A stretch of 61,392 bases of DNA, counting the filler, from Hausera hauseri (taxonomy: Eukaryota): assembly GCA_046269625.1 (NCBI GenBank). It is 7 parts of 7 records of this genome, joined end to end, with 100 filler letters (N's around TTAATTAATTAA, not from the genome) between each part and the next. Parts side by side here need not be neighbours in the genome. Positions count along the whole stretch, not along the records: positions 12,450 to 33,660 come from JBJURY010066660.1; 6 more parts are not named here. The stretch is one strand, 5' to 3'. The notes beneath the pieces were generated by a model, which searched no databases, was not told the origin of the DNA, and worked only from the letters and a program-made list of their open reading frames with translations. The translations under genes were made by a program, and so were the position numbers. Below, in pieces: positions 4,847 through 56,358 of the stretch (position 1 is the first letter of the stretch; each line of letters opens with the position of its first letter).

Positions 4847-5224
4847 AGACTTATTACTTTGTAAAAATATTTTTACCGAAACGGTGTCTGTGTCAAACAT
4901 TTTAAGTAGTAGTGTTGTCTTCAAAGCATCTGGAAATTTTGTAAATTTTTTGATCGAATTAATAAGTCATGATGAGTATTTTCTTACACATGTTGTCGAA
5001 TTACATCCAATTGAAGAGATACGAAATTTCCAGCAGCTCGAGCTCTTGCTGACATATTTTAAGAGCCAAATAGAAAAGGAAACAGTTCCGATTAAAATCA
5101 TTCAAGAGTCTGCAATTCATACAGCAGTATTTTTTAGTGAGGGTTGTCGACCCCTAATATGTCAGTGCCACCGTGGTGCGGTTCCATTCCCGGTTCCTTG
5201 TCCCAGGGTCGTATGTGAGGATGT

Positions 5225-8200: not shown

Positions 8201-9340
8201 ATTCTCACTAGGAAATCTCCATCTCCACGTCAAGACAGACAGATTTCATATCTCTCAACGTTCGCGTTCGAAATAAAACAAATTTCAGGGGTTGACAAAT
8301 TAGTGGCTGATTTTTTGTCGCACTCCGTCGACTCTATCACGTTTGCACCCACTTTTGATAGTGAGTTACTCCTACGGAACCTACCAGACGAGTCTATTCT
8401 CTCCGCCTTAAAATATTACAAAATCATTGATGGCTCAGCTTTGGACACCTCTAATCCTGGGTTTACTAAAATTATTCTATCACCTTCTTTGCAAAAAACC
8501 GCTTTCACCATTATCCATTCTTTGCGTCATCTATAATCCAAAGCTACTTATCGCTTTATTAAACGCCAAGTGATGTGGCCATCAATGAGAACAGATGTGC
8601 AGGACTGGGTTAGGGAGCATGTGGCATGCCAGAAGTTTAAAGTAGCCAAACACCTCAATCCGCCACTCTATCATTTTCCCTGCACATCACGTTTCGACAC
8701 CATTTACATCGACATAGTCGGACCTCTTCCACCTGACAACGGCCATCAATTCATTCTCACAATGATGGATTGTGCTTCTAGATGGCCAAAAGCCATTCCA
8801 CTTCGCTCAACCAACACTGAGACTATTGCAGATGTTTTTATACGCACATGACTCAGCAGATTCGGCTCACCTAAGCACATAATCACTGATCAAGGCTCTC
8901 AATTTGAGTCGAATCTTTTCACATCATTAGTAAATCGACTGGGGATCAAGCATATTCACACAACACCTTATCATCCTCAGTCAAATGGGCTACCGAAGCG
9001 ATTATATCGTACTATAAAAATCTCCCTTAAAATTCTAGCCGACTCCAATCAACACTGGGTAAACCTTCTTCATTAAGTTCTACTGGGATGGCGGAACACC
9101 CCATCCACAACCACAGGCTTCTCTCTGTCCAAGGCACTCTTTGGTACACCAATGCTTGCACTGTTCGAGTTGACGGAGTGCGATGAAACACCCACTGACG
9201 AAACAATCCGAGCAGTGCAGGAGTACTTTGTTGCGCTGAATAACGATTCTTTCTGCAGAATACTAAATCACAACAAGGCATACATTCCCGACACTCTATA
9301 TACAGCCAAATTTGTCTGGCTGAAGAATCCAGTGTCGCAT
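5225..9340 (+). mobile_element. Decayed CsRn1/Kabuki-like Ty3/Gypsy LTR retrotransposon (UBL-gag, PR, RT, RH, IN), pseudogenised
   Basis: Gag fragments with CHCC-type knuckles (CIYHNKFRDNARKC), an AAAAAAC slippery site at the gag end (6517-6523), PR 'IDTGA' (~6658-6672), RT 'KSPWASSLHVVPKKDGTFRPCGDY', RH 'LTTDAS', IN 'IDIVGPLP' and 'TTPYHPQSNG'. Many stops and frameshifts, and the RT core appears deleted. Confidence 0.9.
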
Positions 9341-10589
9341 GGGTTCCAATGTGGTGCTCACAGCGGCCGATGCCCTCTAGCCCATTTGGTTGGACACGGC
9401 CGGGCGTCCGTCGCCGCCGCGTCGGACCCATAGTCGGGCCCGATCTTCCGCCTCGAAAGAGTTTCATACATATAATACATCTTACTAAATCCACCAGTGT
9501 ACTGCAAATGTGATGATTATGATCTAATGAATCTCTTTATGACTAGTGTTGTAAATTGGAAAAATCAGTTTTGAATTTTGTAGTCAAATTGAAAACGTTG
9601 CTGTTAATGGAACATGCGGTATGTTGTTGTTCAGTATTAAGAAATCACTTGATAAATTGACAGGTTTGCGATGTATGAGACCAAGAGTCTACTTTTAGCA
9701 CGCTACGTCCAATTGGGATTACTCGACGAGTTTGTTCGGAAGAACAAAGATTCCATTGAAAGTCTTTCATTAGTTGATCTTTCCAAAGGACCATTACCAG
9801 ACTTGGCAATTGTTTATTTTGTTAATCTGACAGTAACGGGTCTGAGTTTTGGGTGTGATTCTTACCATGAAAGACATTCTTTAAATGCCAGATTTTCTTT
9901 CATGCCTTATTTTGCAGGTCAAGACAAGAAATGTTCCATTTGTAATAAAAATTAATATGCAATGTCTCGGTGGAACAAACGAAAATTTTCTGATAAAAAT
10001 GATTTCCATGCAAACAAATTGTCATTTGGAAAATTAAAATCAACAAAATCAAATTAATAGTTTCAGCAAAATTGAAATTTCGGCCGATGTGGGTGCATCA
10101 GTGTCTTCGGTTTCCGGTGGTCGTGTTGATGGTGTTTGTGTGGCGGGTGGTTTCCTTTCAAAGGAGCATGTAACTCATCCACACACTGACACTAAGTTTC
10201 TAGGTCATAATGATAATAAAAGATACAATGGTTTGCTGAATGTAGTACGAAAGAGACGTCCAATGGGTTAATCAAGACACGCCGTAACATCTCTCGAAAC
10301 ACAATATTTAAGAACTTGAATAACAACAATGATTTTTTAGCTGACGAGTATAAAAGCAATAAATACCTTAAATTCGATAATTTCGATAACCCTAATCTGA
10401 AATATTTCAGTAATTTCAAGGATTTATTAGTAATCGTAAGAAACAACTTTTCTGTATAGTGAAACAAGAATCGCACAGTTATTACTACAATGAAATCGAT
10501 AACGGTACAAAAAAGTGATTGTTTCAGTATCAAATTGTCTTTACCAAATACTGCCCGTTCGCCCGTCGATTTACCAACTGGCCCAATGA

Positions 10590-12192: not shown

Positions 12193-12556
12193 GCCTTCAA
12201 TCCCGTCTTGATACTTCTTCTCAACCTTCGTCAAACTCACAGTGTTCTAATTCTTCTTCATTTCACAATGACAGATCACTTCATGCCTTTCCTCAATCTT
12301 CCTCAGACCTTCAATCTTACAAACCTACTTTACCTTCCTCCACTTAGTCNNNNNNNNNNNNNNNNNNNNNNNNNNNNNNNNNNNNNNNNNNNNTTAATTA
12401 ATTAANNNNNNNNNNNNNNNNNNNNNNNNNNNNNNNNNNNNNNNNNNNNCCAAGCATTTGAAAACATCCTGGAATAAGAAGAGAAACCTTAAAGTTGAGG
12501 TTTGGGAACTAAACTCTGGGGTTTGATTGATGCTGCGGGCATGTGTGCGTGGGTAC

Positions 12557-12875
12557 CTGGAGGGCGGCAGGATGTGTCGGTGCTGGGCCTCGAGGATCTG
12601 TTGCTGGAGGAGGTATTGCTGGTGTAATGCCTGAGGTAGGAAGGGCGGGCCGGGGATGTCCTGGAATTGCGGAGCAGGCAGCGGGTTGAGAGGTGGGTGG
12701 AGCGGAGGACCGTGCTGGTGGCCCGGAGGGGCCAGGTGGGGGTTCATGCCTGACTGCGGCTGCCCTGGATGGGGCATTGGGAAGTCCATGGGCAGCGGGG
12801 CCTGAGGACCTAACTGGAAGTGCCGGCAAGAGGTAGCATGGCTGTGCTGCTGCTGTTGCCGGTTAAACTGGGACC
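12557..12875 (-). CDS. RNF165: Internal coding exon of vertebrate (teleost-like) RNF165/ARK2C (Arkadia-like E3 ligase)
   Basis: Translation HSHATSCRHFQLGPQ...GPPFLPQALHQQYLLQQQILEAQHRH matches the remembered RNF165 N-terminus (HPHATSCRHFHLGPP...GPSFLPQALHQQYLLQQQLLEAQHRR). Flanked by acceptor ttctcctccacag and donor GTACCC. 319 nt, phase-consistent, much higher GC than the rest of the window. Confidence 0.85.
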
Positions 12876-13297
12876 CTGTGGAGGAGAAGCACAAGTCGTC
12901 AGGGGTCTGTTGTGGGGGGTGAAACAAGCTGGAATAAATTGTGGGTGAAATGTGGTGTCACTGTGTGTGTGACATAGCATGTTAATGAAAGCCCTGCCTC
13001 TTACCTAGGGTGAAAAATACTTCTGTGGGGGTGGAAAATGATGGTTACCACAAGTACCATGAAAATGACAACCACCTTTGGGTCCTTCACACAAAACGTG
13101 AGCTTTTCCTTTCTTTATCTGTACTTTCGACACCTGGATCGACTCCTTTTCTTCTGATCCAGAGGAACAGATGAACTTGACCAGCGTACGAATAACGCAG
13201 CTCAGTGCTCTCAGTCATAAAACATTATTTTTTTCTTTGCACATCATAAATTTAACTATTTCTTTTCTAATTTATCACTACAAAATGAATACGTGAA

Positions 13298-16200
13298 ATG
13301 TATTCGGAGGTCATAGAAAATGACTGTAGGCTAAATCAGGAAATCTTAAGAACCAAATTGGCTCTAATCACATCAAATCCAGATATGTTGGTTCCAGCAT
13401 TACCCTTAGCAGAAGGAATGTTTGGAAGAGTGATTGGCGAAACTCTGTTAACCTTCATGTGCCAAAAACTTGAAGTAAATCTAGCTACTGATAGATCAGA
13501 ATTAACAACATGCACATCCGAAATTCCAGTCAAGTTAAACAATGAAATAAGATTGGTAACACCAATAACACGAATTCTTCTACCAAGGGAAACCAAACCC
13601 ACTATTATTCAAAATTGTTCAGGACTAATAAAGCCTAGGATAAAATATAATGATCAAGGTCAATGGGTACAACTACCTGATAGTACTATAGTCCAAACAC
13701 CATTAAAAATAACGATGACATCCTTAAAATACGCTGTCGATATAAACTTATTCCAGGATACAGCGAACGTAGGATTATATGGACCAAACGAGTTAAATAC
13801 ATTCATAAAACAAATCATGTTCCCTATAATGAGGGAACAGGAATTCAATCGAGTAGGGCATGCAGTCCTAATGAGTGGAACATCATCCAGAGACTATAGC
13901 AAAGGATGGCAAAGTGTTCTAGATCCTGATCTACAAGAAAGAACCATAAAAAAGGTTTTTGGTATAATATTTGGACATTTTCAGTGGCTTGGTAATATAG
14001 CCTCCACTATATTAGTTTTTTACTATGGATTCGTAATACTTAAAAATGGATGTATGACATGTGTAGATGCATATTCCATATACGCCATAACTGGATGTAC
14101 CTGGAAAATATTGGCCGCTCTACTAAAACCAATAGCTAGAATTTTTATGGTGCGGCAAGAAAATAAATGGAAACAAGGAATTGAACAACACGTGAACTAC
14201 ATTCCACCTAATCGAAGACGTCATAATGGAAAACCTCCAAAACCACCTAAACGAACAACAAGCACCTTAAGAGGAAGTTTAAATGATTTAAGAAAGAGAG
14301 TCAAAAGTTTTATATCACAGAATCCAGAAAATGTTTACGACAAAGTACAACCAAAAGTGTACAATCCTAAATGGCCGAGTCCGTCACTGTCATATCGTGC
14401 AATGATAAAAGCTAAACAGGATATCTGTACAGCACCTCCCGAATACCAATCGGATATGTCAGGAAGAATGCTGTATTCTCCAAGAAGATCAACATCGCCC
14501 CTTCAGAATATACCATTAATGAATCCAGAATTAACACGAATGTTACAAGAAAAAAGAACCGTTGAGTTACAACAGTCTATATCAAGAAGTATTGATGATA
14601 TATCGATCCATGATCCATATGATCAGCGAGAGAAATACCTAAAGTTGTCGGTATTAAAAACATCGGGTCCTCAATATCCTATGGACCAACTAAAAGAAAT
14701 AAAAGAAATACAAGATGAAACCCATCATCCTAATGTTACTGTTTTTGGTACTAACAATTTTACAATATCAACATTAGATGACGAAGTTTTAGATCCTCGA
14801 TTAAATCAAACAATTCGTCGAAAGGTTGATAAAAGACCAAGAACATTAATTAAAGTAGGAAATATCATGTTAAAAGCTCTGATAGATACAGGAGCAGCAA
14901 TATCCGTAATAAAAGAAAATTTAATTCCAGAAGATAAGAAACATGAGTTAATAATTCCAGAAATCCCGACAATAGGTAGAAGCATATTTGGCACTACTCA
15001 ATCTCCAATAGCTTATTGGGAAACAGGTATAATCATATATGGTGAATACGTTAAAGTTAAATTCAGAGTAATGAAAGAATTAGCCGATGAAGTCGTCATT
15101 GGAATGGATGTATTGTCAGAATTGAAAGACATGGTTATCAATTTAGCAGATGGACAATGCAAACCATATAAAAGCGTAAAATTACCTGAAGGCTATAAAC
15201 CTAATACAGTATGGATGGATTGTGATGAAGATATCCCGGAATTTACAGAAGTAGTCTTGTTCGCAAGTACAGCGATAAATGATGAAGAATCAGACTTTTA
15301 TTTTAAACCCAAACTTCAGCACGAAACTAACTTGATAATGATGCCATCCGTTAGTAAAATAGTTGATAATAAAATTCCAGTTCGAATATTGAACACTACT
15401 GTCAAACCCCTATGGATAAGGAAGAACCAAAGACTTGGCGAAATAGTAGCTTCAGTTACTGAAGCAATAGAAGAAATCCATAAATCAAAGGAATATGTGC
15501 TATTACCCAAATTGAGCGATACATATTTAAATCTCCAACAGTATGCTGAATTAAGTATTAAAGTATTAAAATATGAAGATGTTTTTGCCAAAAATGAAGA
15601 CGAATTAGGAAAACTCAAAGATTATCATATGACTATCAAATTAAAGAAAGATCCAGAAACAGGATGTGAAATCGATCTTGCAGATCAACCACAACCTAAA
15701 TACTATCTACCACCAGAGTCAGTAAGACAGGATTTAGACGAGGAAATTAAAAGACTCCTAAAGTTAAAAATAATCGAAAAATGCAATGCGCCTTGGGTAT
15801 CACCTACCCTAATGGTACCAAAAAAGAACACAACCAAAAAACGATTGTGTATTGATTTTAGACACATTAATAAATACATCATAAGTGATACATATCCATT
15901 ACCCAAGATAAAGGAAATTATTGAAAAATTAAAGGAAAGTGAATTCTATGTTACTATCGATTTCCAATGTGGTTTTTGGCATGTTAAAGTTGCCAAAGAA
16001 GATAGATATAAAACTGCTTTTCGAGTACCACGAGGTATATACCAATTCAAACGAATGCCTTTTGGATTGAAGATAGCTCCATCAGTTTTCCAAAGACTGA
16101 TGACACAAATATTAATAGAGGAAAATAATCCAGGAGTAAAAATGCCTAACTTTGAAGGAGACATGGTTTATATCGATGACTTAGTTCTAACAGGAAAATC

Positions 16201-19200
16201 CTTTGAACAACTACTAGAAAAAGTAGTAGAAAAGCTAGAAAAGTGTAGGAAGACGGGATTAAAGATAAACCCTAAAAAATGTAAATGGTTCAAACAAACC
16301 ATAATTTATTTGGGTTTTAAAATATCTAAGAAAGGCATAGAGACTACAGAAGAAATAATCCAAAAGGTTATCGAATATCCTGAACCTAGAAATAAAAAAG
16401 AATTACAAGGATGGTTAGGATTAGTTGGTTTCTATGCAGACTTCATAGAGAACTATGCACAAGTAAACGAATCTTTATATCAATTACTAAAGAAAAAAGT
16501 AAATTGGGAATGGACTCAAGAAAGGCAAGATGCTTTTGATCATATGAAAAAACTGCTCACGTCAGCACCTATTTTGCAATATCCTGATTATGACTATCCC
16601 TTTATCATTAAAACAGACGCAAGTGGAAAGGGATTAGGATATATATTAGCACAACAATTTGTAAACGAACCTACTGAACATGTAGTAGTATACGGTGCTA
16701 GATCATTAAAACCCGCAGAAACGCGATATCAAGCTACCGAATTAGAACTATTGGCAGTGAAAGAAGCTTTGAGACATTTTTGTTACTATATCTATGGCCG
16801 GAAAGTCATCCTTTATACAGACCATCAGGCCTTATTAAATAAAAAATTCAGTCCAGAAATAACCAAGAGAATGAATAAATGGTTAGCCTATATAAAAGAT
16901 TTTAATATAGAATTCAGGTATAGGCCAGGAAAGCAGAATACTGATGTGGATGCATTATCAAGAATGCCCTTCAATGTATCATCAGTTGAAGAAGTTGATA
17001 ACGAATTCAATGTTATGTTACAGAAATATAGAGAGATAAACACAGCAGCTATTGCCGAAAAACAAGTAAAAGATGTTCAAACCAATTATATAGTAGAATA
17101 TGTAAAAACGAGAAAAATGCCACAACACGATCAAATAACTAAATATCTCAAAAAACATGGAATGCAATTTATATTAGACCAAGAGATATTAAAATATAAT
17201 CAGGATGGACGACTACTGGTAGTAGTACCAAAATGTTTAAGAAATGCAGTTATGTGGCAAGAACATGATGCTAATATGGCGGGTCACCCGTCTAGCAGAA
17301 AAACGAAAAAGAGGATAAAGTTGAAATATTATTGGCCAACCCTAGAAGTAGATGTACAAAACTGGGTAGACGAATGTAAAATGTGCGCTACCATAAAAAA
17401 TAAAGGAGAACGTTTTAAGCCACCATTGAAACTTATCCCTGAACCTAATAGCCCTATGGAATTCTGTGCTATGGATTTCTCGGGGCCATTTCCTCTCACA
17501 CATAATGGAAATAAGTTTATTTTGTTATGTACTGATTATCTCACAAGTTACTCTATCCTAATTCCAACTAAAGATTTACTAGCAATAACAGTGGCCAAAG
17601 AATTTATCAATAATATACTTTGTCAATTTGGAGCACCACGCTATCTACTAACAGATAGAGCCCCAAATTTTAGAAGCCAATTACTAAGAGAAATAACTGA
17701 CATATGTCAAACTAAGCGATTGCTAACCACAGCATATCATCCGCAATGTAATGGAAAAGTAGAACGATTAAATTATACCGTACAGTGTCTCCTGTCAACT
17801 ATGATAGATAAATCTCAGAAGGATTGGGATGAACATTTAAAAGTAGTTCAATTTGCAATAGCGACCACACCGACATCTAGTAAGTATACACCGTTTGAAT
17901 TACTTTATGGTAGAAAACCCCTTTTACCATTAGATATACAGCTCTTGCCAGAAAAGGATATTCCTATCAATACAGATGAAGAAGTTATCCATGCAGGTGT
18001 TGTGCATAGTCTTGCTAATTATTGGATAAGAGCTAAACATGCCATACGTGAATACAAAGCAAGTTATAAAGAACAATATGATAAGAAAAGTAATCCTCAT
18101 AATTTTCAACCGGGTGATAAAGTCATGATACACTATCCCGTTGCCAAACCAGGCAAGTCCTTAAAACTAACTAGAACTGGTAAAGGACCATATCTAGTTG
18201 TAAAAGCAACTCCAGAAAATGTCTTTATAGAAAAAGGTACTGGTAAGAAAACCAGAATAGAGTGTGTATCTGTACAGAGAGTGACTAAAGGACCGAAAGA
18301 ATCTACACCTCAACAAGAGCCTAAATATTCGCTGAGATCATACAAAAAGACTACTATTAAACCAGCTTGTAGCCTGGAAGAATTATTATTTTTAGTAGTA
18401 ATTTTCGGATTAATTTTATCAACAGCAAGTCAAACGTTGGTAACTGAACCAGTGAATGCAAACCTAGACTTAAAAATCAAAATCATTTGGAAATATGAAC
18501 CTTATCTGATAGATTGTCTACTCGAAGGAGAACCTGTATTTTCAAAAATAGGATACTTAATGATCCCACCTAGTAAACAGGATATATGGTTACTTACAAA
18601 AAGATGTAAGGTACCCCTTATGAATGAAGTATGCATACTACAACTTTATTACCTTCCAGTGAATGGTATATTGGCTAAAGAAAATGAATTTGAGCCGATA
18701 GCCAGACAAGTGCATGTAGAAAAGATAGGTCAATCTTTTTTCTTTACTCAAGATAAAGATATTGAACCTAGACTTATAGATAAAGTCGATCTAAAAAGAC
18801 CTACGTTAAATTCAGACGTTGATTTACAAATAACTTATTATTTTCCAAAATTTCTTATGCACACTTCAGGCAAAAAAGCCCTACACTATCATATTCAAAT
18901 GTCAGTTCCACAATTTTTCGAAATTTCAGTTCTAACAACCAGTCCAACCACTAGAATCAAAACTACAGTCGTAATAAATAGAAAAGTCTTGCGGATTAAA
19001 CCACAAGCTCTACAAAAAATACCATCAATTTCAAATGTAATTAAAGATACGTACATCGAGTTTAAAACCCTAAGTCCAGCTACTCAACCGATACAGATAT
19101 CATGCATAGGAAAATATCATATCATGTATTCGGTAATCAAGGAAAAAGAAAGAACTACAAGATGTTCTGAACTTCAACCTGATGAAGAGTATTTAGTAAT

Positions 19201-21844
19201 TTTTACACAAGAAGGTAAACAAACCATGCATAATAAAATTAGGACTCAAACTAAAATATACTCATCTAAAAACATACCATACCAACCAATATATCTAACA
19301 ACGACATATATTGACGATACAATATATGAACCAAATATGCTAAAAACTATAATACCGTTTATAGTAATATTGACATTTTTGCTAATTATCACAACACCAT
19401 TTACCATTCGACAGTTATTGGTATGGAAGAGAAAAAGAAATATAATAAGGAACCAGAGAAAACAATTACAGATCCTCACGAGAAAAATTAACACAAATAA
19501 AAGAACTGCAAGTCATGTGCAGTTAAACCTAATCAATACGAAAATGCAACCTTTAATAACGACAATGTTTGTTATGTGTTGTTTACAAGTAACAAATGTT
19601 TCTATGATGACTGTGGAATTGACAGAATTAAGCATAAGAGAACTAAAGCTAACTACGATCTCTAAAGATGTAGGACGCTTACATGTCCCAACTAGAAATC
19701 TCTTTAACCAACCAAAGATTGAAAGTTCATATGAACAACCAATAAAAATCTATCAACCTACACAAACCGATTTCGTACAAAAACGAAATCAAACATTAAT
19801 ATTTTCTTTTAGAATACAACTCGACCAAATGGCACACTTCCAAATCGATCTGGACGATTCCGACGCCGATTCAGATACCTCAGTACAAACTGTGGTCCCT
19901 AACCCTAAACGAAGGGTTATACCACCCAACCAAGAATTAAGATTTTCAAATCCAACATTTGGACCACCAATGGTACGTGGAATATTACAATATCCACCAC
20001 AATCAATTCCTTCAATTTTACCAAAACAACTAAAATCAGTTGTTGAAATAAGAAGACCACCACCAGATTTTTCAGAAATACCATCAGAAAAGAAGCAGAA
20101 ATACCAGGAATTAAAAACAAGTATGGATAAAAATCTGGTCGAAAGCCGAGAAGAAAAAATCAAGAACAAAACTTGGGAAGAATTATTACAAAAACATATA
20201 GTCCTACACGAAGGACCAAAAAATCGATTCTCTTCCAAGTTCTATAAAACTATTTTGCAACTCTCAGAGCAAAATTCAGATATATTTTTTCCAGAAGCCA
20301 AATTTTTGGATAATCAACTCAAAGAATCAACATATCACAATCGCAGTTTCCGAATAATATCAATGGAAAAACCACACTACAACATTAGCCTCCAACAGTT
20401 GCTAAAAATACAAGACAAATATGACTTCCTTTATATACATATTGCTCAAGGACAAATACAATTTATTTCTGGAAATGATAATTATTCTTCCAGTAACAAG
20501 GACAAATCAATCAAATCTGCCTATGCCACTATGGAAATCTCTCACTTAGCAATGAGAACTCCTATTCATTACAGAATAATTACTACACCGGCAGTATTAG
20601 CATTTGAGATAGTCTCTAAAGAAGATATGCTAATCGGACTGCAACCACCGTTGTTTTACGCGTCACCAGATTTCCAGAATACTAATAATTTTCAACTAAC
20701 AACAGTTGTTAATTATAGGTATTTGGCAGCCTCATTTGCCTATGGAGTAAATGGAAAGCCTATACCAATTGAAGTCACGATCGCAGATGAAAAGAAGTTG
20801 CTGATATATCATGCATTTAGTAATCCTAGAACAAGGATATCCAATACTAATGAGCATCATCATGGAATAACATTAACTCTCATGATGCAAGCAGAAGATG
20901 AAGAAGTCGTTCGTCAGGAAATAATCAAATACCTATTCGGATACACTGTAATATCAGTCAATACAGTGGCTTTATTAAAAGCATTACGGATTCCTATTGA
21001 ATTTCTGCATGGAATAATTGACTTATTGGCTTTATCCAATACAAAGGATCGGTTTCATGAGATAGGACTACAAAAAGTCAATCTCACTCAATTACCTCAA
21101 GCATATGGAATCAAAGAACACTTTCTGAAGCAGGCCGAATCAGTATTACAAATGATCATGCAAATTCATGGGCTGATCACTGAAAATTGTTCAAACGAAA
21201 AATTAGCATTACAATGGACATCGCTACCAAATAATTTAGTTCATAACGGTTCCTTTCAGAAAATTCCTGAAAAATATCATATTGATTATAAACAAGAAGC
21301 CATACAAAACGACACACCAAGTGTGTTTGATCAAATAAAAAAACAAACAGACATGATAATGAAAAAACTCGAGAAGGAACGACAAGAAATACAACATATT
21401 GGAAAAAAGTTATCAATTCTTTTATACGGAGGAAAAATTAGGACAGTGAATGTATTTTATATACAACAGCCAAAATCAAAGATTACAACTAAAAAACAGT
21501 TGTATCCACATCCTGATTTCGGAAAACTTGTGGCCATAATATATAAAAGCTCCGAATATCAAACCTTACATATGGCTGGTATTGGATACCAAGCAGAAAT
21601 CCTCAGGGAATTGGATGAAGAGACCATTACCACTATGCAACCTATTCCAATTCAGATGGACCTAACCCCCATCCCTAAACCAAGGGGGGGAAAACCCTTA
21701 ATGCTCAATAATACCAACAAAGCAAACCTTCGAATGATTCTGTATTCGTCGCCGAATGGATACATATTGGAAAATCTCTATGGTATCCAGACAACAGAAC
21801 AGTTACCAGAAATGCAATCCAGTGACATTGTGATCCAGCTATGA
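13298..21844 (+). CDS. Polyprotein C-terminal 2848 aa: glycoprotein C-half + TM, PR, RT, RNase H, IN, second signal/ectodomain/TM, unknown domain, dead DEDDh exonuclease
   Basis: TM ~13955-14045; PR LIDTGA (DTG 14885); RT YIDD (16169); RH TDAS..ELELLA..YTDH..DALSR; IN HHCC (17264-17386) and D-D35-E core (MDFSGP, LTDRA, KVER); GPY 18185; hydrophobic segments 18374-18433 and 19346-19408. Confidence 0.95.
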   Translation: MYSEVIENDCRLNQEILRTKLALITSNPDMLVPALPLAEGMFGRVIGETLLTFMCQKLEVNLATDRSELTTCTSEIPVKLNNEIRLVTPITRILLPRETKPTIIQNCSGLIKPRIKYNDQGQWVQLPDSTIVQTPLKITMTSLKYAVDINLFQDTANVGLYGPNELNTFIKQIMFPIMREQEFNRVGHAVLMSGTSSRDYSKGWQSVLDPDLQERTIKKVFGIIFGHFQWLGNIASTILVFYYGFVILKNGCMTCVDAYSIYAITGCTWKILAALLKPIARIFMVRQENKWKQGIEQHVNYIPPNRRRHNGKPPKPPKRTTSTLRGSLNDLRKRVKSFISQNPENVYDKVQPKVYNPKWPSPSLSYRAMIKAKQDICTAPPEYQSDMSGRMLYSPRRSTSPLQNIPLMNPELTRMLQEKRTVELQQSISRSIDDISIHDPYDQREKYLKLSVLKTSGPQYPMDQLKEIKEIQDETHHPNVTVFGTNNFTISTLDDEVLDPRLNQTIRRKVDKRPRTLIKVGNIMLKALIDTGAAISVIKENLIPEDKKHELIIPEIPTIGRSIFGTTQSPIAYWETGIIIYGEYVKVKFRVMKELADEVVIGMDVLSELKDMVINLADGQCKPYKSVKLPEGYKPNTVWMDCDEDIPEFTEVVLFASTAINDEESDFYFKPKLQHETNLIMMPSVSKIVDNKIPVRILNTTVKPLWIRKNQRLGEIVASVTEAIEEIHKSKEYVLLPKLSDTYLNLQQYAELSIKVLKYEDVFAKNEDELGKLKDYHMTIKLKKDPETGCEIDLADQPQPKYYLPPESVRQDLDEEIKRLLKLKIIEKCNAPWVSPTLMVPKKNTTKKRLCIDFRHINKYIISDTYPLPKIKEIIEKLKESEFYVTIDFQCGFWHVKVAKEDRYKTAFRVPRGIYQFKRMPFGLKIAPSVFQRLMTQILIEENNPGVKMPNFEGDMVYIDDLVLTGKSFEQLLEKVVEKLEKCRKTGLKINPKKCKWFKQTIIYLGFKISKKGIETTEEIIQKVIEYPEPRNKKELQGWLGLVGFYADFIENYAQVNESLYQLLKKKVNWEWTQERQDAFDHMKKLLTSAPILQYPDYDYPFIIKTDASGKGLGYILAQQFVNEPTEHVVVYGARSLKPAETRYQATELELLAVKEALRHFCYYIYGRKVILYTDHQALLNKKFSPEITKRMNKWLAYIKDFNIEFRYRPGKQNTDVDALSRMPFNVSSVEEVDNEFNVMLQKYREINTAAIAEKQVKDVQTNYIVEYVKTRKMPQHDQITKYLKKHGMQFILDQEILKYNQDGRLLVVVPKCLRNAVMWQEHDANMAGHPSSRKTKKRIKLKYYWPTLEVDVQNWVDECKMCATIKNKGERFKPPLKLIPEPNSPMEFCAMDFSGPFPLTHNGNKFILLCTDYLTSYSILIPTKDLLAITVAKEFINNILCQFGAPRYLLTDRAPNFRSQLLREITDICQTKRLLTTAYHPQCNGKVERLNYTVQCLLSTMIDKSQKDWDEHLKVVQFAIATTPTSSKYTPFELLYGRKPLLPLDIQLLPEKDIPINTDEEVIHAGVVHSLANYWIRAKHAIREYKASYKEQYDKKSNPHNFQPGDKVMIHYPVAKPGKSLKLTRTGKGPYLVVKATPENVFIEKGTGKKTRIECVSVQRVTKGPKESTPQQEPKYSLRSYKKTTIKPACSLEELLFLVVIFGLILSTASQTLVTEPVNANLDLKIKIIWKYEPYLIDCLLEGEPVFSKIGYLMIPPSKQDIWLLTKRCKVPLMNEVCILQLYYLPVNGILAKENEFEPIARQVHVEKIGQSFFFTQDKDIEPRLIDKVDLKRPTLNSDVDLQITYYFPKFLMHTSGKKALHYHIQMSVPQFFEISVLTTSPTTRIKTTVVINRKVLRIKPQALQKIPSISNVIKDTYIEFKTLSPATQPIQISCIGKYHIMYSVIKEKERTTRCSELQPDEEYLVIFTQEGKQTMHNKIRTQTKIYSSKNIPYQPIYLTTTYIDDTIYEPNMLKTIIPFIVILTFLLIITTPFTIRQLLVWKRKRNIIRNQRKQLQILTRKINTNKRTASHVQLNLINTKMQPLITTMFVMCCLQVTNVSMMTVELTELSIRELKLTTISKDVGRLHVPTRNLFNQPKIESSYEQPIKIYQPTQTDFVQKRNQTLIFSFRIQLDQMAHFQIDLDDSDADSDTSVQTVVPNPKRRVIPPNQELRFSNPTFGPPMVRGILQYPPQSIPSILPKQLKSVVEIRRPPPDFSEIPSEKKQKYQELKTSMDKNLVESREEKIKNKTWEELLQKHIVLHEGPKNRFSSKFYKTILQLSEQNSDIFFPEAKFLDNQLKESTYHNRSFRIISMEKPHYNISLQQLLKIQDKYDFLYIHIAQGQIQFISGNDNYSSSNKDKSIKSAYATMEISHLAMRTPIHYRIITTPAVLAFEIVSKEDMLIGLQPPLFYASPDFQNTNNFQLTTVVNYRYLAASFAYGVNGKPIPIEVTIADEKKLLIYHAFSNPRTRISNTNEHHHGITLTLMMQAEDEEVVRQEIIKYLFGYTVISVNTVALLKALRIPIEFLHGIIDLLALSNTKDRFHEIGLQKVNLTQLPQAYGIKEHFLKQAESVLQMIMQIHGLITENCSNEKLALQWTSLPNNLVHNGSFQKIPEKYHIDYKQEAIQNDTPSVFDQIKKQTDMIMKKLEKERQEIQHIGKKLSILLYGGKIRTVNVFYIQQPKSKITTKKQLYPHPDFGKLVAIIYKSSEYQTLHMAGIGYQAEILRELDEETITTMQPIPIQMDLTPIPKPRGGKPLMLNNTNKANLRMILYSSPNGYILENLYGIQTTEQLPEMQSSDIVIQL

Positions 21845-22130: not shown

Positions 22131-22143
22131 GAGGAGGGAGAGA
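22131..22143 (+). promoter_or_regulatory. Polypurine tract
   Basis: GAGGAGGGAGAGA immediately before the TG at the LTR start. Confidence 0.85.
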
Positions 22144-23463: not shown

Positions 23464-23481
23464 TGGCGCCCGAACAGGGAC
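23464..23481 (+). promoter_or_regulatory. Primer binding site complementary to tRNA-Lys(UUU)
   Basis: TGGCGCCCGAACAGGGAC is an 18/18 match to the canonical tRNA-Lys3 PBS, 2 nt after the LTR-terminal CA. Confidence 0.95.
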
Positions 23482-23644
23482 TGTTTGTGTACTGATAGGT
23501 AAGAATTCAACAAGGGTAAAATAAATAAAATATTTTGCTCAGAACAGCTTAAAAATTCCTCCGAGACAGTCTCGTAAATCTAAACAAGAAGCTTTAAAAC
23601 GCTTATCTGTCAATTCCACACAGTCGTTAGATAGACAAAAATCT

Positions 23645-26600
23645 GTGAAAAATCCAAAACCAAAGTTAAAAGATCTAACCATAGACATTGAACCATTAAA
23701 TCTTAATCTTCTAGAAGATAATAATTTACCTAACATGGCACAACAACAACAACAACAACCCCAAATTAATGTAACTGTTTTTGAGTCTTTGAACATACCC
23801 AAATACGACGGAGATCCTGCTGGATTATTAAAATTTTTAAAAACGTATCAACTTTTAAGTGAAGGTCTGGGCATGGATACTCAAGCCTATATCAGACGTA
23901 TGCCGTTATATCTAGACAACGTAGCATTAGATGTTTTCCAGGAACTAACAAGAGATGAAAAGGCTGATTGGGAAAAACTAACAGCTGCGCTTATCAAAAA
24001 GCTAATGCCTACAGTAACCCCCACAGCCCAGTTAGCTATCTTACAGAAACGTTTTCAGTTACCCGGAGAAACAGTAACACAATATTCATACGCGCTTTCT
24101 GAATTGGTAAAAAACTATGCCAACACAGTAAAAACCCAAATTTTAATAAAAAATCCTGAAGCTAATGAAGATCAACTAAGAGTCGAAACTGATATTCATC
24201 TGTTGACCCAATTCCAAAGAGGAATAAGGAAAGATATTCGTAACGATGTCTTAAAAAAGAATTGTTTTACTTTTAGAGAGGCAGTAAGAGAGGCCCAAAA
24301 CCTTGAGGCATATGTTGGAACATTTACAGGTGATCCTAAAAATAATAATAAAAAATTTCCACAAAATAACAATGGAAACCAACAAAATTCTCAACAACAA
24401 AAGCCACAAAATGCTAATAATCAGCAACAATCTGATGCCTCAAAGTCTCAAAGTAATGCTACTTTTCCACAAAGTAAAGGTAATAACACCAATAAAAACC
24501 CCTGGAGTAGCAATAATAATAGTAATAAGAGTTCATGGAATAAAAATAATTCGAACCAATACCAACAGAAAGGTAGAGTGGACTTAAATAGAAATGGAAC
24601 TCCAGTAATATGCAAAAGATGTGGCCAAAACGGTCATACTTCGGTCAATTGTATGACCCCAGTAGAACAGTTACCGGCTGTAAAGCAAGAAAAAGTGTTG
24701 AATCTATCGTCATTACACGAAACACTGGATGACGTAAAAATCAAATTGGACAGATTGCCTCCACAAATAAAGGAGCAGTTTCTTAGTCAAGCCGCTAAAG
24801 AAAGCACCGATGTCGATGATATGCTTAAAAGATATCAAGCAGGAAAGTATAAAAACCCCATATCATCAATGATCGACGAAGAAGATTATACGGACGAATT
24901 TGTCACTAACAGTATAATCCTTACAACCAGAAAAAGAGCTTTAGACAAATTATTTAAAGGGGAAACCTTAACACCAGCGGAAGATTATTTGTTAAAGGCT
25001 ATGCCTGTAGGACCTGAAGTTGAACCTTCACAAATGCAACAAAATGCACCTGCACAATTCAACTCCGATGAAGAAATAGAAATAAATCCATTAGCCTCGC
25101 TAGAGAAAGATGAGGAGAAAGGTGAACAAGTGCAGAAAGAACTTAATACAGATTTAGATGACTCTTCGAGCGATAGTTCCGAAAAACCTCTAGTAATTGC
25201 AGATACAGTTGATAAAGTTTTAAATAAACTGGAAATCGAAACACAAGAAACTGGTCCACCATTAACCGCTTATCAATGGATACCGATACAACAGGCACCT
25301 GAAACTGAAGAGTTTCTCACCCAGGTAGTTCCAAAAGTTATTAAAAAGTCGAAGCAAAAACCACATGCTAAACCAATCGAAACAATGTTGGAAAATGATA
25401 ACGAAGAAAAATATGTTAATAAGAGAATAAAACAAGATGTCAAAAATATACTAAGTGGAGAAATACCAGAGTATGCAAAAGATTTGCCAGAGATGCAGTT
25501 GGTAATTTTATCGAAACATCTGAATGATCCAAAAAAGTTGAAACAATCCAAAGTATTTGATGATCTCTTACAGACATTAAAACAAATACATAAAAATCGT
25601 TACAGTAAAGAATGTACTGAAATTGATGAATTAATAGACGAGGTTTTAGGTAGAAAAAGAGATACTTCAATCTCACAAATACTAACCAAATCACCTTCAG
25701 TAGAAGCAATAGATTTAACTGAGGATTCTCCACAGACAGAAGATACTTTGCCACAATTGCTACAAAAAGCTAGAGATGTGGACATGGAAAAGATTTCCAC
25801 TTTATCCCAACTTGAAAAAATTTCGCAAGGATTGGAAAATCAATTATTCCTTAAGAAACTAAACTATCAAGATAGACAAAATGTTCAAAGCAGCATCCGA
25901 GATTTACAACAAAAGATAGCCGATTTTCAACAAAGGTTACAGCTCATCGAAGAGATATATTTTGATATTGATAGAATAAACCAAATGAAGCTTTCAAGGC
26001 AAGAAAAGATGAAATGGATTCACAGAAAGAATGAAATAGCTCTGGTGTCAGAATATCCTTTTCAAAAAGAGAATGAAAAATGTATTTTTGAAGTTCGACA
26101 AGAGATTGACAAATTCACCAAACCAACTATACAAAAGGTTAACGAACTAAAACTTAGGATCGAAAAATTGAGTCAACTCAACTTACCTAATTTGTCGCAG
26201 GAAAAATTAAATAAACAAATTCTAAAACTAAATAAATTCAAAAATACGTTTTCAGAAGTAGATCGCGCTAAAATAAACGCTATAGAAAGTTTTATTGATA
26301 GAATAGATGATACACCGAAAATCATGAACAAAATTGAGGAGTTAAAGCTAAAACTGAAAGATAAAAGAATTAAATCAGTAGATAAACCCAAAGCCAAAAA
26401 ACATTTCAAAATGATATCAGCCCTTAAACCATTCTTTACAGAATTAGATAAAAAGAAAATTCAAAGGATAGCTGAATGGTATGAAGATGCGACAAGTAGT
26501 CAAAATCAAGATATTGACGACATACCATTAGAAGAACTAGATGACTCAGAAGAAGCCGACACGGCCGAAGAGTTAAATCTAACGGAAGAAGATGTAGAAA

Positions 26601-29600
26601 AAACTCTACAGCAGTATGAAGAGGTGATAACACAACCTCACCAAGATCCTGTGTATCAAGTACAGTATTCACCCGAAAAATTAAGATCCGACATTTCTTT
26701 AACTCAGGTTTGGCCTGAAGTCTTAGATGAGCACCTATTGAATCTCTTTGAGCCAAAGTTTGATTTACAAGAATTAAAGGAAAAAATACCAGAATTAATT
26801 ATATTAGCAGCCGATAATAACAGATATAATGCATTACCAAGAATGTTACTGAAACAATACGGGACTACATTCCGACAAAATCCTCCTTTAGTACTTCCAT
26901 TAAGGGTAATAACTTTAAAGACTAAAGAGATGAAAATAATTATGTCTACTCATGACAATGTATTAGCTACAAAACAAGCTATAGCGGAAAAGATCAAAAT
27001 AAACATAAATTATATGCGAATTATTTTTGCAAATCGAATACTAGATAACGCTTCTTACCTAACAGAAGTAGGTATCCTACCAGGAGAAAATAACGAGATC
27101 CATGTCATAGAAACTAAACAATTACTTAAAGAAGATATAATCAGGCGAATTTCTGATGGACAAGAAATCAAAATAGACGAAGAAATTCTTGGAATAAACG
27201 ATAAAAAATTGTTTGTAAACAAACTCAAACATAATATTCAAACTCAACAAATAACTCCTATAGCTGAATATGATAAGGAAATACATCAGGATATACCTCA
27301 GCAGCTACTACAAGCTCAACAGAAAAAATTAAAAACTAAACAAACAAATGAAGATTTTATAATAAATTCTTTTGTTCAAAAAATGACAACAACTGAAGTC
27401 ATAAAAACGAATAAGAATTACAAGATAATTCGTGATTTAGTAAAGGAGCTATATGACATCATCACTGGTGTGACAACTATTAGTAAAGAAACACCAAATT
27501 GGATAAAAGGCGTAAAAGAATTGGCATTGCAATATCAAAGAGATCAAGTACCTAAACATTTCCGTGAACAAATAGTCAAGAAATTATTACAAACTCCAAC
27601 AAAAAGACGTATCGAAAAAACGTTAGTCTATCTAGTAACGACAATAGAAAGTAAATCTGAAATTAAGGAAATTATTCCAATCATAATCGACTTGATAGAC
27701 TCGGATGTTTACAAGTTCGGAGGATGGATGTCAATATTTGATAAAAACGTATCAACACAAGTGCAGCCGGCAGTACCAAAAATGACGTTAGAAACGTTGC
27801 CTGAGGTTGTAACCCAACTTACAGAATCAATAAAAGAGCAACAAATACAAGAAGAAAAAGAAGGAAAACCAGCATCGTATAATACTAAAAACATAATAAA
27901 TGCAATATTAGCTGTCTTGTTGCTTTTAACAACTATCCTACCAAAAGGAGCCGGTATTACAATATATGATTGCAACAATAATATTAAGCACGGAAAGTAC
28001 TATTCCCTAATGGATTTAGATAAATGCCCAGATGCATCACCTCACCGCCTAACTACTCAAAAGGAACATATGTACGTCTACCAACAAAAACAGAAGTTAC
28101 ACATATCTGGTTATGAATGCTCCTTGCAAATGTCGGAAAAGTTGCAATATTGCGGGATGCATAGTCACATATCAGAAATTAAACCTTTTACTCCATTCAT
28201 GCAGTTAAAAATTACACCGCAGCAATGCTTAGAAGCCATACAATATGGGAGAATTAATTGGGATGGATTTACTATAGATATCCAACCAGGTGAAGTACGA
28301 ACAGTATTACGTTATAAAGAAGGAACAATTGACGCTGCAGGAAATTGTGCAGCTAATGGTGGAGGTAAAGGAAATATACATACACAAAGGTATATTGCCG
28401 AATTAAAAACAGCAAAATTTATTTTTGACACCACCACAGGTACTATGGTAGATGCACCATTTTGCAAATATACAGCAGAATCATGTCGAGTAAGAACCGG
28501 GTTATTAACTTGGACAAATGATAAAAAATCAAGCTGTCATTTGGCACTTCTAAAAGAAGGAATATTTAACGTGACAACCGGTTATCGTTATAGTGATGAA
28601 ATGAATAGAAATCTACCGGATTCAACCGTTAAAGTAATTCCGGAGGTAAATACCCCAACCATATATTGGTCAAGCAATATAACAGAAGGAATGAAATTTA
28701 TCAGGCAGGAAGCCACGGTGATATGTGACACCACTTTATGGAAAACGAATTATGATAATTTTTTCATATCCTCAATGAAAGTTAGAGGAGCAGATAACGA
28801 ATTCTTTGACAAAACTCAACACTTGGATTTACAATCATACATCAGAAATCGCGATGACTATTTATATTTTATCACTACAAAAAGAATACATGAAATGTAT
28901 TCAGAGGTCATAGAAAATGACTGTAGGTTAAATCAGGAGATTTTAAGAACCAAATTGGCTCTAATCACATCAAATCCAGATATGCTGGTCCCAGCATTAC
29001 CCCTAGCTGAAGGAATGTTTGGCAGAGTGATCGGCGAAACTCTGTTAACCTTCATGTGCCAAAAACTTGAAGTAAATTTAGCTACTGATAGATCAGAATT
29101 AACAACATGCACATCTGAAATTCCGGTCAAATTAAATAATGAAATAAGATTGGTAACACCAATAACACGAATTCTTCTACCCAGGGAAACCAAACCCACT
29201 ATTATTCATAATTGTTCAGGACTAATAAAGCCTAGGATAAAATATAATGATCAAGGACAATGGGTACAACTACCCGATAGCACTATAGTCCAAACACCAT
29301 TAAAAATAACGATGACATCCTTAAAATACGCTGTTGATATAAACTTATTCCAGGACACAGCAAACGTAGGACTATATGGACCAAACGAGCTAAATACATT
29401 CATAAAACAAATTATGTTCCCTATAATGAGAGAACAAGAATTCAATCGAGTAGGCCATGCAGTCCTAATGGGTGGAACATCAACCAGAGACTATAGTAAA
29501 GGATGGCAAAGTGTTCTAGATCCTGATCTCCAAGAGAGAACCATAAAAAAGGTTTTTGGTATAATATTTGGACATTTTCAGTGGCTTGGCAATATAGCCT

Positions 29601-32600
29601 CCACTATATTAGTTTTTTATTATGGGTTCGTAATACTTAAAAATGGATGCATGACCTGCGTAGATGCATACTCCATATACGCCATAACTGGGTGTACTTG
29701 GAAAATATTAGCTGCTCTACTAAAACCGATAGCTAGAATTTTTATGGTACGGCAGGAAAATAAATGGAAACAAGGAATTGAACAACATGTGAACTACATT
29801 CCACCAAATCGAAGACGTCATAGTGGAAAATCTCCAAAACCACCTAAACGAACAACAAGTACCCTAAGAGGAAGTTTAAATGATTTAAGAAAGAGAGTCA
29901 AAAGTTTCGTATCACAGAATCCAGAGAATGTCTACGATAAGGTACAACCAAATATGTATAATCCTAAATGGCCGAGTCCATCACTATCATATCGTGCAAT
30001 GATAAAAGCTAAACAGGATATCTGTACTGCACCTCCCGAATACCAATCGGATATGTCAGGAAGAATGTTGTATTCTCCAAGAAGATCAACGTCGCCCCTG
30101 CAGAATATACCACTAATGAATCCAGAATTAACACGGATGATACAGGAAAAAAGAAACGTTGAGTTGCAACAGTCTACATCAAGAGGTATTGATGATATAT
30201 CAATTCATGATCCATATGATCAGCGAGAGAAATACCTAAAGTTATCGGTATTAAAAACCACCGGCCCACAATATCCTACGGATCAACTAAAAGAAATAAA
30301 AGAAATACAAGATGAAACCCATCATCCTAATGTTACTGTTTTTGGTACTAACAACTTTACAATATCAGCATTAGATGACGAAGTTTTAGACCCTCGATTA
30401 AATCAAACAATTCGTCGTAAAATCGATAAAAGGCCAAGAACATTAATTAAAGTAGGAAATATTATGTTGAAAGCTCTGATCGATACGGGAGCAGCAATAT
30501 CCGTTATAAAAGAAAATTTAATTCCAGAAGATAAGAAACATGAGCTAATAATTCCAGAAGTCCCGACAATAGGTAGAAGTATATTTGGCACTACCCAATC
30601 TCCAATAGCTTACTGGGAAACAGGTATAATTATATATGACGAATATGTTAAAGTCAAATTTAGAATAATGAAAGAATTAGCCGATGAAGTCGTCATTGGA
30701 ATGGATGTATTGTCAGAATTGAAGGACATGGTTATCAATTTAGCAGATGGACAATGCAAACCATACAAAAGTGTAAAATTACCCGAAGGTTATAAACCTA
30801 ATACAGTATGGATGGATTGTGATGAAGATATTCCAGAATTTACAGAAGTCGTCTTGTTTGCAAGCACAGCAATAAATGATGAAGAATCGGACTTTTATTT
30901 TGAACCTAAACTTCTACATGAAACTAACTTGATAATGATACCATCCGTTAGTAAAATAGTTGATAATAAAATTCCAATCCGAATGTTGAACACTTCTGTC
31001 AAATCCTTATGGTTAAGAAAGAACCAAAGACTCGGTGAAATAGTAGCTTCAGTCACTGAAGCAATAGAAGAGATTCCTAAATCAAAGGAATATGTGCTAT
31101 TACCTAAACTGAGTGATACGGATTTAAATCTCCAACAGTATGCTGAATTAAGCATTAAATTACTAAAATATGAAGATGTTTTCGCCAAAAATGAAGATGA
31201 TTTAGGGAAACTCAAAGATTATCACATGACTATTAAACTAAAGAAAGATCCAGAAACAGGATGTGAAATCGATCTTGCAGATCAACCACAGCCTAAATAC
31301 TATCTACCACCAGAGTCAGTAAGACAGGATTTAGACGAAGAGATTAAAAGACTTCTAAAGTTAAAAATAATAGAAAAATGTAATGCGCCTTGGGTATCAC
31401 CTACCCTAATGGTACCTAAAAAGAACACAACCAAAAAACGATTGTGTATTGATTTTAGGCACATTAATAAATACATCATAAGTGATACATATCCATTACC
31501 CAAGATAAAGGAAATTATCGAAAAATTAAAGGAAAGTGAATTTTATGTTACTATTGATTTCCAATGTGGTTTCTGGCATGTTAAAGTTGCCAAAGAAGAT
31601 AGATATAAAACTGCTTTTCGAGTACCAAGAGGTATATACCAATTTAAAAGAATGCCATTTGGACTAAAGATAGCTCCATCGGTTTTCCAAAGATTGATGA
31701 CACAAATATTAATAGAAGAAAATAATCCAGGTGTGAAACTGCCCAACTTTGAAGGAGACATGGTTTATATCGATGATTTAGTTTTAACAGGAAAATCTTT
31801 TGAACAGCTACTAGAAAAAGTAGTAGAAAAGCTAGAAAAATGTAGAAAGACAGGATTAAAAATAAACCCTAAAAAATGCAAATGGTTCAAACAAACCATA
31901 ATTTATTTGGGTTTTAAAATATCTAAGAAAGGTATAGAGACCACGGAAGAAATAATTCAAAAAGTTATCGAATATCCTGAACCTAGAAATAAAAAAGAAT
32001 TACAAGGTTGGTTAGGATTAGTTGGTTTCTATGCAGACTTCATAGAGAATTATGCGCAAACAAATGAATCTTTGTATCAATTATTAAAAAAGAATGTAAA
32101 TTGGGAATGGACTCAAGAAAGGCAAGATGCTTTCGATCATATGAAAAAATTGCTCACATCAGCACCCATTTTACAATATCCCGATTATGACTACCCCTTT
32201 ATCATAAAAACAGATGCAAGCGGAAAAGGGCTAGGATATATATTAGCACAACAATTTGTAAACGAACCTACTGAACACGTAGTAGTATACGGCGCTAGAT
32301 CATTAAAGCCTGCTGAAACCCGATATCAAGCTACTGAATTGGAACTGTTGGCAGTAAAAGAAGCTCTAAGACATTTTTATTACTATATCTACGGCCGGAA
32401 AGTCATCCTTTATACAGATCACCAAGCTTTGTTAAATAAAAAATTCAGTCCAGAAATAACCAAGAGAATGAACAAATGGTTAGCCTATATAAAAGACTTT
32501 AATATAGAGTTCAGGTATAGGCCAGGAAAGCAGAATACTGATGTGGATGCATTATCTAGAATGCCCTATAATGTGTCATCGATTGAAGAAGTTGATAACG

Positions 32601-44620: not shown

Positions 44621-44669
44621 ATGCGGGGAAAATGGTCACACTGGTGGGCCCGAATCAATGAGAGAAATC

Positions 44670-55698: not shown

Positions 55699-56358
55699 TC
55701 AAGTTAGCTGACTACTTTCTCGCATTTCTCCTCCATGAGCGGCATCCTCGGTGGAGCCTATTGCGTCAGAAGAGGTGGCGCCTAATGGTCTAGGTTGTCT
55801 CAATCGATTCATTCTTTCTTGTAAATCCGTCTGGGAATCTGGTTGGGCGTGACTCATTGACGAGCTCATCTCTAGATTGTAACTATGGTAGGGTTTATTT
55901 CGAACAACTCGAGTATAGCTTCCGTCTGAGTAATATTTTAATTCAGTGGCCTTCGGCCGACACACTGGATATGTCGTCTTCCCGCTGTCAAGTGTCCACT
56001 TTTCTAGACAATCCCGACAGTACTTGTGGCGGAAAACTTTGTTATCTAATACCACATAGCCTTGTTTCAAACTGGCGTCACATACAGGGCATTCTTTATC
56101 CTCCTTATCCCAATCGTCTCTATCCAAATCTACTTTGATTGTTAACTCGATTGGTTCAAATACAAGACCGTCTCCATCTTGGTATAGATATCCGTGAATT
56201 TCTTTCTCCTTAGGATTAATGGAACTTTTCCGTGGGTCGCAGTTTACTTGGATTAACCTCCAGTTCGCCATAAGATCTCGATCTAAATCGGGAATCTTGC
56301 CTTCCATTCGATATTTTTGATATTGTTTCTTAAGTAGTATTCGGATTTGTTTATCCAC
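55699..56358 (-). pseudogene. C-terminal RING-finger (C3HC4-like, two ligands substituted) ORF of the element
   Basis: CPVC-x14-H-KYCRDCLEKW-x8-YPVCR at 55957-56091. Confidence 0.65.

Follow-up and report, generated by a model that had tools for sequence, protein, structure and literature searches.

Background

Ty3/gypsy retroelements with the order gag-env-pol and an envelope protein of the HSV/gB type have been described as 'errantiviruses' from Platyhelminthes, Nematoda and Bryozoa (Chary and Hayashi, eLife, PMC13524379). Herpesvirus gB needs gD, gH and gL, and entry by the gB-type errantiviruses is left unexplained in that paper. Its survey did not search other ORF arrangements, and its sequences may carry tails of the kind described below unannotated. 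In the Burro/GYPSM1 elements of planarians, env is likewise in-frame between gag and pol within one huge polyprotein, which also has ubiquitin/SUMO-like and RING-type accessory domains (PMC6431247). The LTR retrotransposons of bdelloid rotifers have an ORF3 that encodes a DEDDy exonuclease, a GDSL esterase or small transmembrane (TM) proteins (PMC5408684). The gag-env-pol gB elements, the in-frame env of Burro and the post-pol exonuclease or TM cargo of rotifers are therefore already known from published work. A literature search covering mainly freely accessible papers, without Repbase entries, found no paper on a second membrane protein after the integrase in such elements.

The element analysed here, from Hausera hauseri, shares with the gB-type errantiviruses the order gag - gB-type env - pol, the LTRs and the presence of multiple copies, and its fusogen, G, resembles the Smed_errantivirus_1 row in supplement file 3 of PMC13524379 when compared by eye and unaligned. 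It is different in what follows the integrase, since no post-integrase membrane protein or exonuclease was found described in that paper, the words 'fibronectin' and 'exonuclease' each occurring 0 times in its main text. The in-frame env, the huge polyprotein and the ubiquitin-like and RING-type domains are shared with Burro (PMC6431247). Unlike Burro, neither copy of the element has BIR, BCL2, MATH, ankyrin or dUTPase domains detectable with Pfam; the element is also smaller than Burro, which has an internal region of >25 kb, and falls outside Burro/GYPSM1. The part of the Burro review consulted (PMC6431247) mentions no membrane protein after the integrase. With the rotifer elements there is a likeness in the exonuclease-family cargo and the TM proteins downstream of pol (PMC5408684). 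The rotifer ORF3 types are separate alternatives, however, and their nuclease is of the DEDDy type, keeps its catalytic residues and has no TM (PMC5408684), whereas here a DEDDh-type pseudo-enzyme is in-frame after a predicted type I membrane protein, with a fusogen in the same element. The element is real and under selection, and the predicted membrane protein after its integrase is the addition to the known gB gag-env-pol elements.

Architecture of the element

The analysis was conducted on a stretch of 61,392 nucleotides (GenBank assembly GCA_046269625.1), referred to here as the window. Its contigs, animal-like in sequence, are separated by N-TTAATTAATTAA-N linkers, at 12394-12405 and at six junctions of the same kind, across which adjacency is meaningless. 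Two tandem copies of the element lie with one inferred LTR between them; the truncation points are 13264 in copy 1, which is of subfamily A, and 32684 in copy 2. The copies are 93% identical in nucleotide sequence across 3824 bp.

Copy 1 has one stop-free frame of 2851 codons (13289-21844, +), 5'-truncated inside G. The order in this frame is the C-terminal part of G, protease (PR), reverse transcriptase (RT), RNase H, integrase (IN), GPY module, second membrane protein, linker and DEDDh pseudo-exonuclease module. The part of G that is present (13289-14197, +) is a gB/class III-type fusogen by its match to Pfam PF24664, Monjiviricetes_fusion (aa 1-303, E 5.8e-33). The assignment of this family to the class III/gB fusogens draws in part on PMC13524379, and G is placed there by family membership. 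The pol region (14828-18295, +) comprises an aspartic protease, RT and RNase H, then the zinc finger and core of the integrase and the GPY module, with GPY at 18185; the PR-RT-RNase H-IN order that Pfam gives in its product P0001 is that of Ty3/gypsy (Metaviridae).

Downstream are a polypurine tract (22131-22143, +), the inferred LTR, which runs from TG (22144) to CA (23461) on the + strand and is common to both tandem copies, and a primer-binding site (23464-23481, +), presumably of the tRNA-Lys type. The TG...CA ends, primer-binding site and polypurine tract are those of a Ty3/gypsy LTR, with a single LTR copy in the window, inferred from its ends. The polypurine tract and LTR come after the post-integrase region, which therefore belongs inside the element.

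Copy 2 (23525-32692, +) ends before the integrase and supplies what copy 1 lacks: a gag region with a zinc knuckle, a ubiquitin-like domain, a signal segment (27902-27958), the whole of G and PR-RT-RNase H. Its PF24664 match (aa 1461-2104, E 4.2e-61) is located by Pfam between the zinc knuckle and PR, which is the gag-env-pol order of PMC13524379. With a PF24664 G before PR-RT-RNase H-IN, and a polypurine tract, LTR and primer-binding site downstream, the element is a gag-env-pol Ty3/gypsy retroelement. The ubiquitin-like domain between Gag and G (26903-27106, +) matches PF00240 at the cut-off, and the stretch of about 1000 aa from the zinc knuckle to G is otherwise without annotation.

Other features were seen in the window. 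Just upstream of the truncated copy 1 is a Pro/Gln-rich, GC-rich reading frame (12450-12957, -) that is probably a host exon. Ordinary decayed gag-pol gypsy elements, in which an envelope was not detected, are present at 5219-9430 (+) and 42238-44635 (-). There is also a cadherin/EGF-like, host-like gene (PF00028; 44953-47044, -) and a host-like long exon with a PAM2 motif (PF07145; 35223-36839, -). Separately, a database search that returned mostly arachnid gypsy gene models also gave P0050, a polyprotein of 2928 aa with PF24664 and a chromodomain, the C-terminus of which has a second protease-like stretch and then a hydrophobic segment.

A predicted type I membrane protein after the integrase

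The original prediction placed a second membrane protein, unrelated to G, after the GPY module of copy 1, with a signal-like stretch, a beta-rich ectodomain of about 300 aa with a Thr-rich hinge, an FN3-like segment, a TM, a basic stop-transfer and a further hydrophobic stretch. Much of this anatomy was recovered, with all named parts in one stop-free frame with the integrase. An internal signal-peptide-like segment (18365-18433, +) lies 66 aa after GPY. It includes the signal-like sequence LLFLVVIFGLILSTASQ at 18383-18433, and its best 19-aa Kyte-Doolittle (KD) window, 18365-18421, has a mean of 2.16. By eye, small residues at -3/-1 mark a likely signal-peptidase site. There follows a predicted lumenal or extracellular domain of about 300 aa (18434-19336, +) with 5 Cys and 0 N-glycosylation sequons against 1.5 expected. 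Along it lie the Thr-rich hinge (18935-18967, +), a membrane-proximal domain (approximately 19010-19255, +) containing the motif SELQPDEEY (19166-19192, +), and a Thr-rich stalk (19295-19318, +). The length of the ectodomain is as had been proposed; its description as beta-rich rests on composition and on models with a pLDDT of 31.

The predicted TM anchor (19337-19402, +) is where it had been claimed to be, its best window, 19337-19393, having a KD mean of 2.44. The basic stop-transfer WKRKR is at 19424-19438 (+) and is followed by more basic residues. The 15 residues on the N-terminal side of the TM carry a net charge of -2 and the 15 on its C-terminal side one of +5, which is the type I expectation. 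By hydropathy and charge alone, the sequence has the signal segment, ectodomain, single TM and positive-inside tail of a type I protein. The third hydrophobic stretch (19544-19609, +) is weak, with a KD of 1.59, and a membrane-spanning role for it is doubtful: the corresponding peak is strong in subfamily B (2.38), and in subfamily C the stretches that were translated contain none. A real third TM is unsupported. The stretch is also unlikely to serve as a translocating signal, because a nuclease fold lies behind it and 7 out of 8 database relatives have no hydrophobic segment.

Similarity to G is at chance level, with a best BLASTP E of 4.0. The evidence supports a predicted type I membrane protein that shows no relation to G and is in-frame after the integrase of an element with its fusogen before pol. 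This call is based upon hydropathy, the charge difference across the TM, the return of the layout in all three subfamilies and the signs of purifying selection. A lone KD peak of 2.4 is weak evidence, because 110 of 2000 random draws of equal composition reach it; it is the repeated layout that is the evidence.

Recurrence in three subfamilies

Two further subfamilies are represented in the window, with integrase cores that are 46% and 54% identical to that of copy A, the subfamily A version. Subfamily B, on contig 1 (962-4276, -), is decayed, with stops and frame changes. It has GPY at 3925, a signal at 3682-3629, a TM at 2411-2355, a second strong hydrophobic segment at 2117-2061 (-) and the pseudo-exonuclease near 1280. 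Subfamily C, on the last contig (55702-59940, -), is also decayed and has GPY at 59766, a signal at 59586-59527, a TM at 58353-58297, the pseudo-exonuclease near 57511 and a RING finger near 56091 (-). Its ectodomain, of about 380 aa, is richer in Cys, with 11.

The order GPY - signal - 300 to 400 aa - TM is thus found in all three subfamilies of the window, as had been anticipated for the signal and TM. The controls were 71 gypsy polyproteins with 81 integrase copies, for the most part gene models from a single arachnid. A signal-like segment and TM after the integrase occur in 0 of these 81 copies, and 1 of the 81 has a hydrophobic segment alone. A metagenome scan returned 3 ordinary gypsy loci, in which the frames stop soon after GPY. 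The contigs of subfamilies B and C do not reach G, so the presence of both membrane proteins in one element is established for subfamily A only.

Selection on the post-integrase region

Contigs of three public runs were aligned to 18240-19660. Run X1 gave 241 contigs with a likeness of 80-95% for most of them, which points to a diverse, multicopy family. Substitutions were assessed at the 40 best-supported of 408 variable sites, a choice that favours old, fixed differences. Third positions make up 28 of the 40, and 27 of the 40 are synonymous against 9.9 expected under random placement of the same base changes; the observed 27 is reached in 0 of 10000 simulations. For the ectodomain, 19 of 30 sites are synonymous against 7.2 expected. 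The ectodomain is under purifying selection. This constraint is looser than that on G or RT-RNase H, where the codon differences between copy 1 and copy 2 are 46 synonymous to 4 nonsynonymous and 71 synonymous to 4 nonsynonymous, respectively, the two kinds of count having been made differently. Small indels number 11, and each occurs in no more than two contigs of low depth, which is what decayed copies would show.

The ectodomain and the FN3 question

Between subfamilies, likeness of the ectodomains is borderline, with z of 2.7, 0.8, 2.3, 2.0 and 2.3 in five pairs; that of the membrane-proximal part gives z of 2.5, 3.0 and 0.4. An I-[ST]-C pattern is common to the membrane-proximal part of all three copies, but aligning almost the same region again gave a different result. 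With borderline homology and unstable alignments, the three ectodomains may be independent captures. By module, the ectodomain has z of approximately 0.8-3.0, as against 19-29 for IN/GPY and 8-28 for the cytosolic module. The ectodomain is thus by far the fastest-diverging module, a pattern that a host-facing surface protein would be expected to show.

Relatives of the ectodomain were sought widely. None was found among 1.84 billion representatives, where all 8 matches fall on the C-terminal module, and word-indexed searches of two protein length classes, 1568-4990 aa and 30-1567 aa, gave none either. Searches of viral contigs with three queries also found none, and the ESM Atlas gave no usable match. 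Comparison with PHROGs, NCBIfam, PDB sequences and phage and plasmid sets returned chance-level rows only. Nothing resembling a host receptor came up with Pfam, in the database searches or among the 1.84 billion representatives. Both AlphaFold2 models of the ectodomain have a pLDDT of 31, too low for use, and fold searches with them are uninformative.

The segment ending in SELQPDEEY had been called FN3-like. The motif is present, and there is no Pfam fn3 match at E<=10. An FN3 HMM was built from 124 bacterial FN3-motif domains, of which 10 were checked in Pfam (10 out of 10 were fn3 at E<0.001, and 8 of them reached or passed the cut-off). Copy A scores -0.8 bits with this HMM, and 619 of 1000 shuffles score as high; copy C scores -0.4 bits, equalled by 325 of 1000. 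Copy B reaches 2.7 bits, matched by 1 shuffle in 1000, only across the 8-residue motif used to pick the training set. Picking the training set by the motif noted in the original prediction favours a match. Profile-profile comparison (hhalign) gave a probability of 0.6%. The resemblance to FN3 is the L-x-P-x-x-x-Y motif of copies A and B, and the FN3 label for this predicted domain is unsupported, although very divergent, AT-biased domains can escape such profiles.

The C-terminal pseudo-exonuclease module

The region of interest had been taken to end at 19620. The frame runs on for about 800 codons past the TM, some 740-750 of them past 19620, and includes a two-domain module found in all three subfamilies, at 20231-21250 (+), 1691-962 (-) and 58075-56969 (-). 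The first domain (20231-20716, +) is conserved and stands before the exonuclease domain in 8 out of 8 database relatives as well as in subfamilies B and C. A cupin identity for it, suggested by motifs seen by eye, was set aside, a PDB profile search having given no match. The second domain (20717-21250, +, the end being approximate) has a DEDDh exonuclease fold of the ISG20L2/SDN1/REX type without the acidic catalytic residues.

Homology of the module among the three subfamilies is clear, with z of 27.9, 9.1 and 8.4. A profile of the three window copies matched four DEDDh enzymes in PDB and nothing else, and a 10-sequence profile matched ISG20L2 (E 6.8e-18), SDN1 (1.7e-12) and ISG20 (2.2e-10). 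The relatives P0084 and P0086 are above the PF00929 (RNase_T) cut-off. These profile matches place the module, at the level of predicted fold, among homologues of the DEDDh enzymes. The acidic catalytic residues of ExoI, II and III are missing in copies A and C, and those of ExoI in copy B. They are kept in three of the eight relatives (P0083, P0084 and P0086) and not in the other five.

In 7 of the 8 relatives the exonuclease module is called as a stand-alone, soluble protein without a hydrophobic segment. This suggests that the module is cytosolic, being separate in some relatives and fused in this element. The subfamily C tail ends in a RING finger (56499-55723, -). P0081 (870 aa) matches the whole of this tail with 42-44% identity and also has a RING finger; its N-terminus is a hydrophobic segment with a KD of 2.07.

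Possible roles of the second protein

It is possible that the second protein is an attachment or helper partner of the gB-type fusogen, standing in the same membrane after likely release by signal peptidase; this is the favoured reading, at somewhat less than an even chance. It is favoured because the protein would be made together with G, on the same side of the membrane, because it is the fastest-evolving part and because gB-type entry is unexplained. The presence of the PF24664 fusogen and the second protein in one ORF is a further point for it. Against it count the lack of sequons and the mere 5 Cys of the copy A ectodomain, and the fact that rhabdovirus G binds receptors without a partner, the fusogen here matching a mononegavirus-type family. 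A fusogen with a separate membrane protein is found in the paramyxoviruses, as F with HN, H or G. Herpesvirus gB with gD, gH and gL offers the same architectural analogy (PMC13524379). No likeness of the second protein to these herpesvirus or paramyxovirus partners was found in sequence or structure, the AlphaFold2 models being at pLDDT 31.

In its full form, the partner reading is a two-component entry machine evolved by one lineage of animal LTR retroelements: a gB-type fusogen would precede pol, a fast-evolving protein for attachment or triggering would follow the integrase, and both would come from one multi-spanning polyprotein ending in an anti-silencing pseudo-nuclease. This wider proposal is more tentative than that of a partner alone. 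The polyprotein would cross the ER membrane at least four times by means of two internal signals and two anchors, with Gag in the cytosol, a signal, G in the lumen, a TM, Pol in the cytosol, a signal, the second protein in the lumen, a TM and the tail in the cytosol. The flavivirus-type polyprotein is an analogy for such a multi-spanning layout. In the absence of spliced RNAs, Gag, G, Pol and the second protein would be produced in a 1:1 ratio. The parts would be separated by signal peptidase and by the protease of the element, which would have to free the integrase from the second signal and probably also the pseudo-nuclease from the tail.

The fusion of the pseudo-exonuclease behind the TM makes a host-modulating role a serious rival, if a rather unlikely one taken by itself. 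The protein would then be no part of the particle. Its ectodomain would be a decoy or signalling mimic, and the TM would anchor a cytosolic pseudo-nuclease, accompanied in subfamily C by a RING ligase, for binding RNA or factors of silencing and immunity. Consistent with such an accessory membrane protein are the DEDDh-fold domain that follows the TM in-frame and lacks catalytic residues, the RING finger of subfamily C and of the relative P0081, and the ubiquitin-like domain of copy 2. Apoptosis and ubiquitin domains are numerous in Burro elements (PMC6431247), and the inactive DEDD proteins Maelstrom and EXD1 work in piRNA biology (PMC5408684). The lack of any likeness to a host receptor argues against it, as does the separate module of 7 of the 8 relatives, in which there is no hydrophobic segment; tethering is therefore not required and the module may be an independent passenger.

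It is improbable, though less so than a functionless capture, that these segments mainly serve topology and assembly, the second signal tethering Pol and integrase at the membrane where Gag and G assemble, with the lumenal domain as a poorly constrained spacer or chaperone. Gag too has an internal signal after it, before G, so that both cytosolic blocks end in a membrane anchor, and the ectodomain is the least conserved module. Its purifying selection, the maintained length of 300-400 aa and the shared I-[ST]-C pattern go beyond what a spacer would require, and gag-pol elements package Pol without a membrane anchor of this kind. That the region is a functionless captured fragment of a host receptor gene is very improbable. 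The weak homology among the three ectodomains would fit a capture of this sort, but the in-frame fusion of 1160 codons has stayed open, the same position and layout recur in three old subfamilies, there is no host homolog among the 1.84 billion representatives, and the synonymous excess largely refutes it. Both the tether or spacer and the functionless capture fit less well than the partner or host-modulator roles, the host modulator coming close behind the partner.

Implications for gB-type errantiviruses

The second membrane protein, conserved and part of one polyprotein with G, is a concrete candidate partner for the attachment and entry of gB-type errantiviruses, a question that is open in PMC13524379. 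Should the two-component reading be true, the missing partner for this entry would be supplied. If the protein is instead a host modulator with a tethered pseudo-nuclease, invertebrate retroelements would reach the level of complex viruses in the complexity of their accessory genes. On both readings, the label 'gag-env-pol' omits approximately 1160 selected codons.
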